From Sedimentisphaerales bacterium (GTDB lineage: Bacteria; Planctomycetota; Phycisphaerae; Sedimentisphaerales; SM23-30), in contig CAXXFK010000007.1 of the NCBI GenBank assembly GCA_963663965.2, positions 139,517 to 203,516 on the forward strand: a DNA stretch of 64,000 nt. The letters run 5' to 3'. The translations under genes were made by a program, and so were the position numbers. The notes under the pieces are model-generated. The model ran no database searches, was not told the origin of the DNA, and was given only the letters and a program-made list of their open reading frames with translations. This document shows, piece after piece, positions 3,560-47,882 of this stretch; the stretch's first letter is position 1; each line of letters begins with the position of its first letter.

Positions 3560-3790
3560 GCCGTCTCCTGTTGTTCTCGGATATATCGTTCCAGTTTTTA
3601 AGAAAATCTCCAGCATAAAACAACATTTTTTGGTCAATACCAATCTACCACGGCAGATAAAATAAATATTCCGGCTCAAAATAACTCTACCGGGCAAAAT
3701 CTATTTTAAGCTTTTTTATGACTCTCTCCAACTAGAAATAGTCATATTGTTTTTATTAAAATACACATTAACCTTCAATGTTTTATGTAT

Positions 3791-3986
3791 GGGCCGCCCA
3801 TTTTGTACGCTTATAATTTCATGTTCTTGACAAACCCAATTTGGAATATCTATCTTGTTATTATATTCGGTGAAATAAAATTGCCATCCGGCTCTAAACA
3901 AACCCAATTAACCCGTATTTCATGATAACTATAGCTTAACATTCGACTTATGAATGATTATCTGAGATAAATCAAACGAACCCTAT
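3791..3986 (+). repeat. Degenerate copy of the dispersed intergenic element (GGGCCGCCCA box plus 3 AC(A/G)AACCC repeats)
   Basis: GGGCCGCCCA at 3791-3800; ACAAACCCAAT at 3830 and 3898; ACGAACCCTAT at 3976. Same order as the copies at ~21.1-21.5 kb and ~43.5-43.9 kb, but no clear promoter or boxA. Confidence 0.55.
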
Positions 3987-17601: not shown

Positions 17602-19965
17602 TTATGGGGCCAAACGCTTTAAAGCATTTTGAGCGAATTGCTGCTCTTTTAATGACAGGCGCGGAACGATAATTGAATCTGAACCGTGCATCAGTCTTTG
17701 CTGTTCCTGATATAACGACTCGATGTGTAATGCCTTTTGATATAAAGTAATCGCGGATTCTATCTGGCCGGTTTTCTCATACCATTCTGCGAGTTTAACC
17801 ATCAAATCGCTACGGATCGGATTGAGTTGTAAGGTTGTGCAAAGATAACATATGGCCTTGTTCTGGAGGGCGCTGTCTTCAGGCCTGACTTTCGCGGCGC
17901 GATCAAATATATCGGCCAGTAACGATGGATAACGAAAGTGGAATGGGTCTCGATCCTGTGCGGCCAGGCAATAATGTTCGGTTTTATCCAGGCCTTGAAG
18001 ATCATGATTGTTTTGCCAGAGCTGGGCTTCGACCTGAGCAGCGATTAACAAACCGCTCGGATCGATTGGGTTCTGGTTCGCGCCGTTGATTGCCAGATCT
18101 AGCGCATCTTTCATAATCGCTTCTATTGGTTTTTCGGGAGCCTGGATCGCCAATTGTCCCAGCAGCACGCGGGCCTGACTCAGGCTTGTTTCTGATTTCC
18201 AGACCGGGATAAAAAGGAACAGCCAGTAACACCCGGCAAGAACTAAACCGGCAATGACTACCGGCTTCGCCGGTCCGTTGAAAGTCGATTGGAGTGGTTG
18301 GGTTGTTTTCTGCTTTTCGGCTATCAATGTTGCGCAAAGCATGAAGAATGTCGACAAAACGCCCGGTTGGAAAAATGCAAAATCTATCGTATTGTGCAGT
18401 AAAAAACCAGCCAGACCACATGAAATAAAACGCAGAATTACATTTTCTTTTGAATCAGCGCTTATACGGTCGGTTTCCTGACCCCCGAAGAAAGCGATTG
18501 CCAATCCGGTCAACCATACGATTCCCGGAACAATCAGCATGATTAAAATTACGCTGTCTTTGGATGAAGGATCCAGTGGCCCAAAATTACTGCATAAGTA
18601 GCGAATCCCAATAATTGTTGCCGTTGCCAGTATCAGGCCGGGCCAGATTTGAAGTCTGGTTAAAAGAGCTTCTTGGCGCACTTGATTTTTGGGTTGGTTT
18701 TCATCGGGGCGAATAACTTTGATGGTGACAAGCAAAATTCCAGAAATTAATCCGGCCAGGCCCAGAATGCCCCATTGGCTCCAGACCGATAATGGCAGAG
18801 AATGGGGATCCCGGATGACTTCAGAAGCGGCGGGATTCATATAACGCGGATAGTAATGGCCAAAATTTTCCGGGCCAACTCCAAAGAACCAGTGATCGGC
18901 AATCATGCCGGCTGTTGCACGCCAGTATTGCCAGCGGACCCAAAGAGAATTCCCGGGCAGGCGATTATGTAGTGTTCCATAAATAATGATTATGGCGATA
19001 CCGATGACAACAATGCCCAAGGCTACCGATAGAGCCATTTTCCAGTGTGGAACCAATCGTTTACGGAATATTTCGATTATCACTAATAAAAGAACCGCAG
19101 CTGAGAGCCCCAGGATGCCGCCATTACTTTGGGTAATCCACAAACCATACATCTGAAAGATCAGAACCAGTCCCCCCAGAATGCACATTGTGGCATAAGA
19201 AGGCTCGTTGCGGATTTTTGTGCGTCCGGTTCGAATTAATCCGGCGAAAAGCGCGGTTCCAGCGGTGATCGATAAGATAAAAAATGAGGCTGCGGTATTG
19301 CTTACATTAAAAAAGCCCCCGATATCCTGACTGCGCACCCGACTGAGAAATTGATGGGCTTTTAAGCTGCCCGGTTCAATCCCGTGTTTAGTTAAATAGG
19401 CATCCGGGTCTTTTTCGATCTCCTGTACTGTCTGGGGAATATCCCAATGTGCTTGTTCGTAACAGCGCCAGGTTAAGGCGATGCCGGTCGCGGCAATGGC
19501 GGCCAATACAAAACGGCGTTTCCAGCCCTGGTCGAGCCATTGAATCAGTTCCATGGCCCAGATCATCGGGCTCAGCCAGTTCAAGCCGCCCACTAGAGCA
19601 AGGTATTTGTCCGATGCCTGGGTGAGTGATAGGGCGAAACCTAAGACCAGTAAAAAAAGTGGTATTGTCAGCCAGGTAGATTTTCGATAGTTTGGGCAAG
19701 TCTGGGTTCGTATCGTAAAACTGATGGCAGCGATACTTAATAATATCCCGTTAAAGGCCAGCATTGCGGTAATTTCAGCAGTGCCGATCATCGCTCCACC
19801 AGAGAGCAAGTCGGCGGTTAAACCCATCGGAAACGATTCACCACACTGAGCCCGACCGGCAACCAGTATAATTCCGAACAGCATAAGAAGATTTCGAATG
19901 CGATCCGTAACCGTATGTTGCCGGCTGGAAGGCAAATCAGATGACGGCTTGTTAATCGAATTCAT
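17602..19965 (-). CDS. O-antigen-ligase (Wzy_C)-family membrane protein with C-terminal TPR region
   Basis: Many TM helices; TQSNGG, SLWVRWQYW, GVGPENF, DPHS motifs; TPR-like tail. Its ATG overlaps the yhaM-like stop codon. Confidence 0.82.
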   Translation of the reverse strand: MNSINKPSSDLPSSRQHTVTDRIRNLLMLFGIILVAGRAQCGESFPMGLTADLLSGGAMIGTAEITAMLAFNGILLSIAAISFTIRTQTCPNYRKSTWLTIPLFLLVLGFALSLTQASDKYLALVGGLNWLSPMIWAMELIQWLDQGWKRRFVLAAIAATGIALTWRCYEQAHWDIPQTVQEIEKDPDAYLTKHGIEPGSLKAHQFLSRVRSQDIGGFFNVSNTAASFFILSITAGTALFAGLIRTGRTKIRNEPSYATMCILGGLVLIFQMYGLWITQSNGGILGLSAAVLLLVIIEIFRKRLVPHWKMALSVALGIVVIGIAIIIIYGTLHNRLPGNSLWVRWQYWRATAGMIADHWFFGVGPENFGHYYPRYMNPAASEVIRDPHSLPLSVWSQWGILGLAGLISGILLVTIKVIRPDENQPKNQVRQEALLTRLQIWPGLILATATIIGIRYLCSNFGPLDPSSKDSVILIMLIVPGIVWLTGLAIAFFGGQETDRISADSKENVILRFISCGLAGFLLHNTIDFAFFQPGVLSTFFMLCATLIAEKQKTTQPLQSTFNGPAKPVVIAGLVLAGCYWLFLFIPVWKSETSLSQARVLLGQLAIQAPEKPIEAIMKDALDLAINGANQNPIDPSGLLIAAQVEAQLWQNNHDLQGLDKTEHYCLAAQDRDPFHFRYPSLLADIFDRAAKVRPEDSALQNKAICYLCTTLQLNPIRSDLMVKLAEWYEKTGQIESAITLYQKALHIESLYQEQQRLMHGSDSIIVPRLSLKEQQFAQNALKRLAP

Positions 19966-20942
19966 TAGAATGAATTATGTTGTTTGAACAAGGGCGTATC
20001 GAGCGATTTAATGTAGTTGGTCCAGGAAGACATATTGCTGTCGTTTTTGATTTCGGTCAGAGTCAGCGCCATTTTTGAATCAAGATTATCGAGAAAATGG
20101 ACCATATAGGCTTCGGGGGTGGCGGGCAATATGGGGCAGCCGAACTCGCGTATCCCATGGTGGGAAACGATGATATGAATCAGGCAATCGGCCAGAGTGC
20201 GCGGGAAGCGCTCGGTTTTTTCATCGTTGAGCTGTTTGACTTTTTCTTCGATCATGATGGCGCCCTTGACGAGGTGGCCCATGAGTCGGCCCTGATCGCT
20301 GTATTTGAAGCTGATATCAAAGTCCAGTTCATTCGTTTTTCCGATGTCGTGCAGGAACAAGCCGGTCAGCACCAGGTCGCCGTTGATTTCGGGATAGAGC
20401 GGGATGATACGCTGGCCGAGTTCAAGAAGGGTCAGGGTGTGTTCCAGCAAGCCGCCGATATAGGCGTGGTGGAGGGCGATTGCCGCAGGAGCATCGCGAT
20501 AGAGCTGCATCAAGTGTTGATCACCCAAGAAGGCTTTGATCAGTCGAATCAGGTGAGGATTCTTAATGGTCCCCAGGATTTCCAGCAAACGGTTCCACAT
20601 GGCGGGGATGTCGTTTTTGGTTGTGGGCAGAAATTCACTGAGGTCGACTTCATCGCGTTCGATGGGTCGAATGGCTTCGACAACCATCTGCAGCGAGTTC
20701 TGATACATTTCGGTGCGGCCCTTGACCATGACAAAACCTTCTTCCGGGAGGCTTTGATAAATTTCTTCGGTAGCCTGCCACATGCGGGCGTTGAGCCGGC
20801 CGGTAGCGTCACTGAGATAGGCGGCAATATAATAATCGCCGCGGCTGGTTGTTCGTAATTGGGGCTGGCTGATGAGAAAAACCTGGTTGATAATCTCGGC
20901 TGGATTCAAACGCTCGATCGGACAACGCGGGACAGTGGTCAT
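19965..20942 (-). CDS. yhaM: OB-fold/HD-domain 3'-5' exoribonuclease, YhaM/Cbf1 family
   Basis: OB fold, PAAIALHHAYIGGLLEHT, LHDIGK, SHHG, DNLDSK; start at the ATG at 20942 with an AGGGAG RBS. Confidence 0.88.
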   Translation of the reverse strand: MTTVPRCPIERLNPAEIINQVFLISQPQLRTTSRGDYYIAAYLSDATGRLNARMWQATEEIYQSLPEEGFVMVKGRTEMYQNSLQMVVEAIRPIERDEVDLSEFLPTTKNDIPAMWNRLLEILGTIKNPHLIRLIKAFLGDQHLMQLYRDAPAAIALHHAYIGGLLEHTLTLLELGQRIIPLYPEINGDLVLTGLFLHDIGKTNELDFDISFKYSDQGRLMGHLVKGAIMIEEKVKQLNDEKTERFPRTLADCLIHIIVSHHGIREFGCPILPATPEAYMVHFLDNLDSKMALTLTEIKNDSNMSSWTNYIKSLDTPLFKQHNSF

Positions 20943-21017: not shown

Positions 21018-21071
21018 GTCAAATTCGGTGTTTTTGACAGGTTGAGAATTTCTGTTAAGTAAATTGTAAAA

Positions 21072-21506
21072 ATTGGGTTCGTTTGGAATCGGCGATGGGT
21101 TTTGATCAAGGCCGACAGGGGCAACGCCTTTGAGTGTTCAGGCGTGATAGAGAAGGAACACCTCTGAATCTGACAGAGTCCATTTGTTGGATTGACAGGA
21201 ATTTTTTTGTAAACGCTTCTCGAAAAAGCGTGGTATCTATTTGTTAGTTAATATGTTATGATCTGTTAAATTTTAATTGGCTTCGTTTCGCGCGGGCAGG
21301 TAAGAATGGCCCTGATACCTTATAATTGTGATTGCGGGTGGTCAATTGGGTTCGTTTTCAAGGGAGATAGTCGCCTTACAAATTAATGGGAGGCCCAGAA
21401 TTGTGCAGTTTATTAAATTTTCAAAGAGCTTTTCGGATGAAATTAGTTTTGGGGAAACCACGGGTTAACCAATATTTATTATAGCAGGATGTTAATTATA
21501 AGTCAA
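21072..21506 (-). ncRNA. Candidate non-coding transcription unit, copy 1
   Basis: Minus strand: TTGACT-N17-TATAAT (21506-21478), boxA-like GCTCTTTGAAA (21429-21419), GGGCCTCCCA (21396-21387), ACGAA(C/G)CCAAT at 21355, 21286 and 21082. No ORF of 60 aa or more. Confidence 0.5.
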
Positions 21507-21738
21507 ATATATGTTATTGTTTAGTGTGAATATTATTAGATTTGATTTGAGTATGTATAACAGAGGAGAATATCCTCTCAAGTATTTATCTGATTTGAAC
21601 TTATGTCATGTATGTTTAACCTTTCTCATAATTATTGTACGATTGTATTGTCGTACGATAAATTGGTTAATGAATGTTAAAGGCTAGAAAATCAGACCTC
21701 TTAATGCTCTGAATAAATTTTTGTGGTTGAAAATATTT

Positions 21739-43496: not shown

Positions 43497-43937
43497 AATG
43501 GCTTCGTTTGGCAACTGGCCAAGGGGGGGCAGGTGGGTAATATTGATGCTCAAGAAATATGGCGGCCCGGTTGGCGGCGGTGATAGGTATTTTGAAGAGC
43601 AGTACAATACGGCATTTGCTGCAAATATTATTGAGGTAAAGGGAGGTTGTTTTCTAGCAGTAAGGTGTTTATTTACAGCTTATTGCGCGATAAAAAATTT
43701 GTAATGGGTTCGTTTGGTCTGGATGGGGGCAGGAAGGTACGGGGGGGGTTAGGTGAAAAGTGAACCATGGCTTCGTTTGGCGCTTGACCGGCTGGGTGTC
43801 GTGGGATGATTGATGTCGCTAATTGGGCGGCCCAATTATATTCATATTTCAAAGAGCAATTGAATTTTAATTTTTTGCAAACTGATGGATTAAAAACAAC
43901 CCGCTTATATTTTAGGGAATAATTTTGTAATAGTCAA
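43497..43937 (-). ncRNA. Candidate non-coding transcription unit, copy 2, with internal duplication
   Basis: Minus strand: TTGACT-N17-TAAAAT (43937-43909), TGCTCTTTGAAA (43858-43847), GGGCCGCCCA (43833-43824), ACGAA(G/C)CCAT at 43776 and 43713, second boxA-like GCTCTTCAAAA (43600-43590), GGGCCGCCAT (43568), ACGAAGCCATT (43507). Confidence 0.5.
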
Positions 43938-44200
43938 ACATAATGATAAATATAATGATTTTGCAACAAAGTCTGGGCGGCCCTTGCGAAGGCAAAATAA
44001 GTTTGACGAGAGTGGGTTCTGAGGTAAACTTTTATTTCATATATGGTTTGATGAGATAATGTCTGGACTATTGATGGCCAAATAACTTTGAGAGGAGGTG
44101 TGGCAATAAAGAGTATCGGGGTGAGAAGGCACTAGTTTTGAGATTATCCACTATTCGAGATGGGAAAATAACACTACATGACACTATTTATGTCGAAACT

Positions 44201-46054: not shown

Positions 46055-47882
46055 GAGCCTGTCCGTAGCTTTAACCCTATAGATTTCAAAAGATTATGTA
46101 AAAGAGTCGGAGTTATAGCGTGCTATTTTGGGTCAAAACCGTAAAATAGGTGTGTTATAAAATGTTTTGCGAATCATTTTTCCTTTAAAAAGGGAACACA
46201 CCTATGCCAGAGATTTTACCCGTTCAGCAGTTGTTTGACAAAGGTATTCCGGAAGAATTTGGCTGTCTGGAGTATCGCCAGGAACGCCAGCAGTTGCTGG
46301 CCATGGACCAGCTCATCCGCCACAGCGATCTGGAGCAGTTGTTTCTCCAGTATTTTCTCGACAAAGCTTACGCTGAAATGGCCATCGAGCACTTTGGCAC
46401 TGACACGCCGGTTAAATTAACCCATACGGATCGCATGAATATTCGTGCCCAGGCCGTTTGGGCGTTACGGATGTCGATCCTGCGTAAGCGGCTGGGTTTG
46501 TCGTTGCGTAAATTTGCCGTGGCCTTGTCTCATAGCGAACTGTATCAGTGGTTTTGCGGCATTAACCGCTTTGATCTGCCTCGGATCCCCGGCAAAACCA
46601 GAATCAACGAGTTGGAAAACGCGCTTTCGCCTCAGTTAATCGCTCAGGCGGAAGAACTGTTTTTTCAAGTGGCCCAGGGTTCGGTTGTTTTGGAGGCCCC
46701 CCTGGATTTCAGTCAGGCTTATTTTGACTGTACCTGCATTGGCGCCCACATTCATTATCCGATCGACTGGCTGCTGTTTAGAGATGCGACCCGTACCTTG
46801 ATGAAGGCGACGGCCCGTATTCGTAAAGCCGGGATCCTGTGTCGCATGCCTTGCGAGCCGGCTAAGTTTATTTCAAACATGAATAAGCTCTGCATGGAGA
46901 TGACCTATGTTAACCGCAAAAAGGGCGCGAAAAAACTGCGTAAAGCGGTTTTGCGAAAGATGAAAAAACTGATCCGGCGGGTCTTGAATCATGCGGAAAA
47001 TCATCTGAAAAACCTGGAAAACCACTGGAAAAAGGCCGATATCGCTCTCGGTTCCGTCCGGCAAATCGTCAAACAGATTACCGGCGTGACCTGTCAGTTG
47101 GCCGCCGTGGTCAGGCAGGCTCACGAACGCATGATCGGCGAACGCAAGGTTGCCAATCCAGACAAGATCTTGAGCCTTTACGAGCCGGATATCCATGTGA
47201 TCGTGCGCCGCAAGGCCGGCGCGGAGACGGAATTTGGCAACCAACTTTATCTGGCCGAACAATCCAATGGCTTAATCATGGACTGGAAGTTATTTCGTCA
47301 GCAAGGTCCCAGCGATGAAAAAATGCTTAAAGCCAGCCACCGGCGTATGGAAGAGAAGCTTGGTAATCAAGTCAAGCTGTTGGCCGGCGATCGGGGCTTC
47401 GACAGCGCCGGGAATCGCCAATACATGGAAAGTCACGATATTTTTAATGCGGTTTGTCCGCTCAGCCCGGCCTTGCTGAAGGAAAGGCTTCAGGAAGAGC
47501 CGTTCCGGCAGGCTCAGACTCGCCGCAGTCAGACCGAAGCCCGAATCAGCATCCTGAGCCATGGTTTTTGCGGGGCGCCCATGAAACAAAAAGGCTTTGA
47601 TCACCGCCAAGTCCATATGGGCCTGAGCATTTTATCGCACAACCTCTGGGTATTGGCCAGAATTAAGCTGGCTCAAGAGGAAGAACGGGAAAAAGAACGA
47701 CAAAAAGTGGCTTAAAACCACCCCGGCTTGCCCTGTTTATGGGGCTACTATGCGCAGAAATCGGAAAATCACCCGCTGAACGAAAATAACCTGGACACCA
47801 GCCGTCATCTACTGATGATACGATTCAAAATCAGTCCTCCCAAAACCGCGGCTCACAAAATCCAAGAATTGCGGACAGGCTC
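46055..47882 (+). mobile_element. Complete insertion sequence (IS5-like/ISNCY-type DDE), 1,828 bp
   Basis: Terminal inverted repeats GAGCCTGTCCG (46055) / CGGACAGGCTC (ends 47882); 6-bp target-site duplication TAGTTA at 46049-46054 and 47883-47888. Confidence 0.92.
46204..47715 (+). CDS. DDE transposase
   Basis: YFDCT...IHYPID, KILSLYEP...TEFG, AGDRGF, RRSQTEARIS. Confidence 0.9.
   Translation: MPEILPVQQLFDKGIPEEFGCLEYRQERQQLLAMDQLIRHSDLEQLFLQYFLDKAYAEMAIEHFGTDTPVKLTHTDRMNIRAQAVWALRMSILRKRLGLSLRKFAVALSHSELYQWFCGINRFDLPRIPGKTRINELENALSPQLIAQAEELFFQVAQGSVVLEAPLDFSQAYFDCTCIGAHIHYPIDWLLFRDATRTLMKATARIRKAGILCRMPCEPAKFISNMNKLCMEMTYVNRKKGAKKLRKAVLRKMKKLIRRVLNHAENHLKNLENHWKKADIALGSVRQIVKQITGVTCQLAAVVRQAHERMIGERKVANPDKILSLYEPDIHVIVRRKAGAETEFGNQLYLAEQSNGLIMDWKLFRQQGPSDEKMLKASHRRMEEKLGNQVKLLAGDRGFDSAGNRQYMESHDIFNAVCPLSPALLKERLQEEPFRQAQTRRSQTEARISILSHGFCGAPMKQKGFDHRQVHMGLSILSHNLWVLARIKLAQEEEREKERQKVA

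Follow-up and report, generated by a model that had tools for sequence, protein, structure and literature searches.

Interspersed site arrays with a sigma-70-type promoter and an rRNA-like boxA in a Sedimentisphaerales genome, and their link to an unannotated helical protein family

Site arrays in the window

The window, meaning the whole stretch of DNA analysed, comprises 64,000 nucleotides of a Sedimentisphaerales bacterium (GenBank assembly GCA_963663965.2, contig CAXXFK010000007.1, positions 139,517 to 203,516). Two of its intergenic regions on the minus strand, copies 1 and 2, had been described in an earlier note as sharing the same ordered parts, and all of these parts were recovered in both, at the positions and spacings given here and in Table 1. 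The three repeats start at 21357, 21288 and 21084 in copy 1 (spacings of 69 and 204 nt) and at 43778, 43715 and 43509 in copy 2 (63 and 206 nt). The divergence of the DNA between the parts, also described earlier, is confirmed: after masking of the motifs the two copies align with a score of 74, compared with 75 ± 11 in shuffles, so their spacers are unrelated. Neither copy has a close paralogue in the genome beyond short units, yet promoter, boxA and sites have been kept, which could mean present-day selection by the host and not decay.

Table 1. Positions of the elements and neighbouring features in the window
Element	Feature	Position	Strand	Remarks
Copy 1	Sigma-70-type promoter, TTGACT-N17-TATAAT	21478..21506	-	11/12 consensus; homologous to promoters heading other arrays
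Copy 1	Conserved GGT(T/A)A box	21464..21470	-	Directly 3' of predicted start site
Copy 1	boxA, GCTCTTTGAAA	21429-21419	-	48 nt past -10
Copy 1	boxA including AATA extension	21411..21429	-	Extension rRNA-leader-like
Copy 1	GC box, GGGCCTCCCA	21387..21396	-	Imperfect short palindrome
Copy 1	Repeat 1	21347..21357	-
Copy 1	Repeat 2	21278..21288	-
Copy 1	AT-rich imperfect 25-bp palindrome	21234..21258	-	TAA-N19-TTA type, 1 mismatch; family's fixed offset +30 after repeat 2
Copy 1	Repeat 3 and tail	21057..21084	-	Short TTAAC-type tail common to other sites of the genome
Copy 2	Extra GC box	43974..43983	-	5' of copy 2 promoter
Copy 2	Promoter, TTGACT-N17-TAAAAT	43909..43937	-	10/12 consensus
Copy 2	boxA core	43857-43847	-	51 nt past -10
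Copy 2	boxA including AATA extension	43839..43857	-
Copy 2	GC box, GGGCCGCCCA	43833-43824	-
Copy 2	19-bp palindrome formed by GC box	43820..43838	-	8-bp arms, 3-nt centre
Copy 2	Repeat 1	43768..43778	-	34-nt unit 30/34 identical to repeat 3 unit
Copy 2	Repeat 2	43705..43715	-
Copy 2	AT-rich imperfect 25-bp palindrome	43661..43685	-	1 mismatch; offset +30 after repeat 2
Copy 2	Repeat 3	43499..43509	-
Copy 3	Partial third element	3664..3986	+	Upstream of lon; includes segment common to another array subfamily; no boxA
Copy 3	GC box	3791-3800	+
Copy 3	Repeats	3896; 3974; ~3830	+	Exact variant; 1 mismatch; partial
Neighbour	yhaM-like 3'-5' exoribonuclease gene	19965..20939	-	Downstream of copy 1, outside the element
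Neighbour	Promoter match for yhaM	21017-20989		From promoter scan

A degenerate third copy at 3791-3986 had likewise been proposed, and its GC box and repeats are indeed present; it lacks a boxA and lies on the plus strand. Elsewhere in the genome a boxA-and-site subfamily with a different leader (L103, L105, L106, L107) is divergent from large, similar secreted-protein genes, and part of that leader is shared by copy 3. Two further repeated sequences occur in the window: a 36-42-nt repeat at approximately 21687-21728 (minus strand), on the 3' side of the gene that precedes copy 1 and with about 10 more copies in the genome, and an ISNCY/IS5-like transposase at 46204-47715 (plus strand), one of about nine copies.

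The 11-base site across the genome

Far from being confined to three copies, as first proposed, the family is large: the 7.24-Mb assembly contains 200 strict copies of the 11-mer. The variant AAACGAACCCA accounts for 152 occurrences and AAACGAAGCCA for 48. When the letters of each variant were shuffled into 200 control words, these occurred 5.0 and 4.1 times on average and at most 26 and 28 times. Both this abundance and the co-occurrence of the motif with promoter-boxA sites, 11 of 12 of which have a repeat, are thus beyond chance. The site has a directional signature, C(C/G)AAAC(G/A)AA(C/G)CCAA, and a non-palindromic profile. Allowing G or A at position 5 yields 310 sites, among which neighbours at most 700 nt apart form 146 same-strand and 2 opposite-strand pairs. 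A single-substitution scan revealed tolerance of change mainly at positions 5 and 8; since the 11-mer often lies in-frame as NEPN and the third-codon positions of this frame are not tolerant, the constraint acts on the nucleic acid.

Among 236 non-redundant units, 74 are followed on the 3' side by a TAA-N18-20-TTA palindrome, where 21 would be expected and none of 200 shuffles gave more than 37. The offset is +30 in 57 of the 74 cases, and the middle unit of both window copies carries the palindrome with one mismatch. Downstream matches to an IHF consensus number 34 of 236 against 16 expected, whereas in a second, closed genome (G166) they number 2 of 43 against 1.9; because the excess is approximately twofold here and there is no enrichment in G166, a putative role of IHF at the site stays a lead.

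The expansion is uneven among relatives, with a site count of 108 in this genome versus 0-3 in each of 30 relatives, many of them fragmented assemblies. The site pattern has 46 matches in viral contigs. The spacers of other arrays (L096, L100, L101, L113-L138) contain 7-9-nt tandem repeats and hairpins that are shuffled between copies, and which we take to resemble those found beside GxxExxY, four-helix-bundle, GIY-YIG and RAYT genes. We found no description of the site or the element family in the literature, where repeat and IS catalogues in supplements or subscription papers may list them.

Promoter, boxA and predicted transcript

Strong sigma-70-like promoters are tied to the site: 44 of 132 have a same-strand site within 800 nt (background 1.2% of positions), and among 12 strong promoters followed by boxA, 11 also have a repeat within 800 nt. 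A looser scan returned 12 promoter-boxA-site loci, both window copies included, of which seven (again including both window copies) are co-directional with the next gene and five convergent. Ten of these loci were aligned, and share the promoter, the GGT(T/A)A box, the extended boxA and mostly the GC box. The extended consensus of the array leaders, G(C/T)TCTTT(G/A)A(A/C)A..AATA, resembles sites in the genome's own 16S and 23S leaders. Its core is identical to the published boxA consensus GYTCTTTAANA (extracts of PMC5725501) except for a G at position 8, which the rRNA sites of this genome share. The earlier identification as boxA is upheld by this likeness of the extended site to the organism's own leaders and by the presence of NusB-family genes. 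The 16S gene and a tRNA-Ile/tRNA-Ala/23S block are unlinked in this genome (G000 C13, C33), each with a promoter and a boxA-like site.

Outside this genome the strict promoter-boxA pattern was encountered once among 250 genomes of the order, with a low sensitivity that caught only four of this genome's own copies, and an exact promoter/boxA/GC-box/repeat pattern, itself insensitive, had no match in metagenome contigs. In G166, where the analysis covered the first 30 of 55 sites, the boxA position reads GCTATTTGA(A/C)AA in all four promoter-plus-site cases, whereas the 16S leader of that genome has GTTCTTTGACAA. Because the G166 sites carry the C4A change of the boxA mutant used in PMC5725501 (as described in extracts of that paper), antitermination may not be general in the family.

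A structured RNA is not borne out. Folding of copies 1 and 2 was no better than that of shuffles (z-scores -0.20 and -0.14), the consensus structure of the 10 aligned leaders has three pairs only, and the window contains no tRNA and no Rfam match, either at gathering score or at E<=2; in 12 other loci, Rfam returned only Acido-Lenti-1, weakly, in one family A locus (see below). RNA from the promoter-boxA leaders would, on these predictions, be unstructured. CRISPR arrays have regularly spaced repeats of 23-50 nt, spacers of constant length and cas genes. The repeats here are 11-13 nt long and spaced at 63-206 nt, and no Cas family is represented among the 43 ORFs of the window, on which grounds a CRISPR array was rejected; the earlier idea of a mini-array is, like that of a structured RNA, not supported by folding or by Rfam.

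A linked gene family

The site lies in and upstream of 26 dispersed copies of a gene, family A, which encodes a protein of 279 aa. All 26 full copies are intact and are 92-98% identical to the query copy, and a core dN/dS of 0.059 at a dS of 0.27 (simple count) reveals purifying selection. Read depth over one copy is approximately 25 times that of unique flanks, in agreement with the copy number. The wider protein family is large (21,933 clusters at 50% identity), and no Pfam, NCBIfam or PDB-sequence match was found for the family A protein. Its structure model is all-helical, with a mean pLDDT of 74 and a core of about 180 residues. Structure searches with the model gave no hit in BFVD or PDB at E<=0.001, and a best VIA Z of 8.2 that is ordinary for helical bundles; the ESM Atlas contributed only unnamed clusters. 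No transposase, recombinase or HUH motif or fold is recognisable in the protein. Invariant in the family are R12, N14, S18, G20, P21, N33, G38, P70, W87 and R91, and nearly so H37 and Y154.

A second gene-bearing subfamily, family B, contains an orphan ORF of 261 aa at about 15 loci (for example L003:2196-2981, minus strand) with in-frame NEP repeats and a dN/dS of 0.28 over the first 145 aa; among proteins of 143-457 aa no homologue was found outside this genome. Subfamilies A and B are headed by one promoter type, and their promoters are like those of the boxA type.

The linkage was followed across genomes in 80 homologous loci, the best of 538, which come from Acidobacteriota, Planctomycetota, Alphaproteobacteria and further groups. 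A strict site lies between -600 and +1400 of the gene in 49 of the 80, in several phyla, and strict sites number 89 in 152 kb versus 5 in 281 kb. A site profile, trained on these same 80 loci and to that extent circular by construction, matches 70 of them, mostly at the 3' end of the gene; it is antisense to the gene in 18 and sense in the majority. In other phyla the repeat thus occurs in both orientations at this end, which suggests a DNA site. The class was represented by 201 genomes. At least 13 sites were counted in 16 of the 23 that have a strong gene match (E<1e-30), versus 3 of the 178 without one, where the threshold was set after looking and kin genomes are not independent; the exceptions are the seven gene-bearing genomes with few sites and the three site-rich genomes without a gene match. 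A gene family whose distribution tracks the motif, which the earlier note had proposed to look for, thus exists. The p-values overstate, because neither copies nor kin are independent. In two contigs of a viral collection (L091:2428-4953 and L092:2931-5263) a family A-type gene lies directly behind two putative YqaJ- and ERF-like recombination genes, with the site encoded at the end of the second.

Orientation relative to replication

Taking the G-rich strand as the leading strand, an established convention, we find the elements to be oriented predominantly against replication. Promoter-plus-site loci are 38 against and 5 with the fork, whereas other strong promoters are evenly divided (41:43). 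The arrays show the same bias (64 against and 18 with, 82 scored), as do family A (17:4), family B (9:1) and G166 (15:4, a noisy estimate from 2-kb flanks). ORFs, by comparison, run 1959 with versus 1366 against replication, six IS families are mixed in orientation, and RT elements are 5:0 with the fork. Strongly transcribed host genes are usually oriented with replication; in this genome, a third of the strongest consensus promoters sit in these elements and mostly point against it. The A+C richness of the array spacers is probably mutational because it follows the local strand.

Signs of mobility

Between two boxA copies, a segment of 1088 bp is 82% identical and extends approximately 300 nt 5' of the promoter; because it reaches so far upstream, the duplication, promoter included, was at the DNA level. 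The neighbours of boxA copies are unrelated between loci. G166 contains 131 sites, mostly doublets, with two gene matches and dozens of gene-less promoter-plus-site elements; 20 loci fetched from it mostly comprise a promoter, mixed modules and a site doublet. In 19 of these, 47 of 52 site-covering alignments stop 111-122 nt after the start of the first site, and two 98%-identical pairs at different loci end at that same point, while gene-less copies and a gene-bearing copy have a common left end. This sharp end of homology at the site is absent in the genome of the window.

Both ends could be located for 11 of the 26 copies of family A, and neither target-site duplications nor terminal inverted repeats were evident there. 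A search for joints linking both ends of the element at one 7-kb family A locus returned repeat-type joints only; it drew on contigs of three runs from one study, two of them containing the organism and possibly its source, and contigs lose rare forms. An Xer/dif-integrated element was considered and rejected, as a dif consensus, searched with as many as 5 mismatches allowed, had no match at the element ends.

Interpretation and alternatives

Among the options raised in the earlier note, a non-autonomous mobile element fits best. In the reading we prefer, to which we assign a probability of roughly 55%, the window elements would be old, ORF-less members of an undescribed interspersed selfish-DNA family whose site is recognised by a family A-type protein. 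The promoter and rRNA-type boxA would let an untranslated, C-rich RNA cross the site array while avoiding Rho termination, and this read-through transcription would open or mark the array. The family A-type protein, a helical protein encoded by the gene-bearing members, would bind the site, which is often followed at a fixed distance by the 25-bp AT-rich imperfect palindrome, and would drive or enable copying of the element, possibly in a manner tied to the replication fork.

We raise more tentatively that the elements may constitute a new class of replication-coupled mobile DNA, in which a helical protein unlike transposases acts mainly in cis on the site, a promoter and boxA of rRNA type have been borrowed, and transcription runs head-on to replication. 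Head-on transcription might then expose DNA in single-stranded or RNA-paired form, from which copies would be made at new loci, and the window elements would be gene-less riders or RNA regulators.

It is also conceivable, although we regard it as doubtful, that the boxA subfamily represents antiterminated, unstructured non-coding RNAs or DNA decoys that titrate the family A-type protein, a sponge or regulator kept by host or element. Consistent with this, the order of promoter, GGT(T/A)A box, boxA, GC box and sites is conserved although the spacers are unalignable, 11 of the 12 promoter-plus-boxA sites head an array, and boxA is an RNA-level signal in copies of which 5 of 12 face convergent genes. 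However, the leaders have no conserved fold, other lineages have the site either way round at the 3' end of the gene, the single occurrence of the strict promoter-boxA pattern among 250 other genomes (at low sensitivity) speaks against a kept regulator, and the bias against replication would be left unexplained.

An unlikely alternative is that the arrays are REP/BIME-like mosaics spread on single-stranded fork DNA by the RAYT/Y1 HUH transposases of the genome, with the linked gene as a passenger. There are 11 Y1 matches in the genome, and a second motif, ACACAGTG, approximately 11 nt before TTGACA and with 66 profile matches genome-wide, stands at the start of families A and B as well as of a six-copy element with a RAYT-like Y1 gene (NF047646, below cut-off); this start, common to family A and the RAYT-like element, keeps the alternative alive. 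An inverted copy of the motif lies a few hundred bases past the gene in three of four copies inspected and one more (example loci L153, L154, L156 and L157, in G000 C1, C25, C20 and C33). The spacers of other arrays contain palindromic modules, one of them the weak Acido-Lenti-1 match, and targeting of the lagging-strand template by Y1 enzymes (extracts of PMC6006769) would give the polarity. However, the site is non-palindromic and lacks a GTAG/CGTC foot, it tracks the family A-type gene across phyla, the second motif is absent from the window copies, and the linked family A gene, itself without a Y1 match, would not be expected intact in 26 of 26 copies at a dN/dS of 0.06 were it a passenger. 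REP/REPIN/BIME sequences and their RAYT genes are alike in having many gene-less intergenic copies and fewer gene-bearing loci, a lineage-specific expansion and mosaic intergenic blocks, and related Y1 elements have a strand bias relative to replication as the arrays do (extracts of PMC3733652 and PMC6006769). In contrast, the repeats here are direct, non-palindromic and preceded by a promoter and boxA, and the linked protein is all-helical without a HUH motif, its gene itself being present in 26 intact copies.

It is improbable that the elements regulate the downstream genes (yhaM and a lipocalin-like gene in the window), either as long 5' leaders under antitermination or as portable cassettes that supply a promoter. 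The co-directional orientation of 7 of 12 boxA copies, the lack of a clear intrinsic terminator closing either copy 1 or copy 2, and the boxA regulation of some mRNA leaders (extracts of PMC5725501) are compatible with it. However, because 5 of the 12 face a convergent gene, the boxA copies cannot all be 5' UTRs, in line with the earlier argument that a plain 5' UTR is not required, and the downstream genes are unrelated (serA, leuS, cmoB, yhaM). The supporting claim that the downstream genes have promoter matches of their own holds for yhaM; for copy 2 the scan returned no match, and a TTGACA only is visible. Upstream of yhaM, neither repeat nor boxA was found in any of 22 relatives (23 loci fetched, 22 with 800 nt of upstream sequence), and no empty site was seen there, where the upstream gene order differs.

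Least probable is a derived phage small terminase acting on a pac-like site, with arrays steering the packaging of host DNA by a helper phage. The seven weak matches that recur most often include three PHROG families of small terminases (each in 2-4 of 120 members, with best E-values of 0.002-0.006), the site is directional and the IHF consensus is in modest excess downstream. However, when profiles were compared with 32 terminase-like proteins, nothing aligned beyond the 18 motif columns used for their selection (probability 54%), 50,697 phage records contain no match and viral contigs only three loci, and packaging would leave dispersal to new loci unexplained. Many viral contigs (L171-L250) encode a protein of 112-165 aa that has an NAxKHGFYS motif, lacks a helix-turn-helix part and matches small-terminase PHROGs.

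Relation to known systems and implications

Apart from the boxA sequence, the elements possess the defining features of no known family. MITEs and PATE-type elements are derivatives without a gene that have one end in common with a gene-bearing element, as the gene-less copies in G166 do; unlike these, the present family has no family-wide terminal inverted repeats, target duplications or subterminal hairpins, and its parent is not a known transposase. Elements of the IS91/ISCR type are alike in their two dissimilar ends without terminal inverted repeats, and the sharp end 3' of the gene and variable upstream extents in G166 recall the single sharp end of IS91, oriIS and one-ended transposition (extracts of PMC13181058). 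Fork-strand targeting, in turn, is known from IS200/IS605 (extracts of PMC6006769). Both IS200/IS605 and IS91 need a HUH enzyme, which the family A protein does not resemble and for which Pfam and NCBIfam gave no match, and in the genome of the window there is no sharp end at the site. Untranslated RNAs protected by boxA include rRNA leaders and some CRISPR arrays. The arrays resemble rRNA-operon leaders in having a strong sigma-70 promoter followed 44-80 nt on by boxA (compare extracts of PMC5725501), and differ from them in that no rRNA, tRNA or CRISPR repeat follows, in their orientation mostly against replication and in the lack of a conserved fold.

These results tie a large, unannotated bacterial protein family to a defined site and element anatomy, so that binding and mobility are directly testable. 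If the protein moves DNA, it would do so without any known transposase fold. Even if the elements are regulators, boxA-protected arrays of unstructured repeats would constitute a new use of the rRNA antitermination signal.
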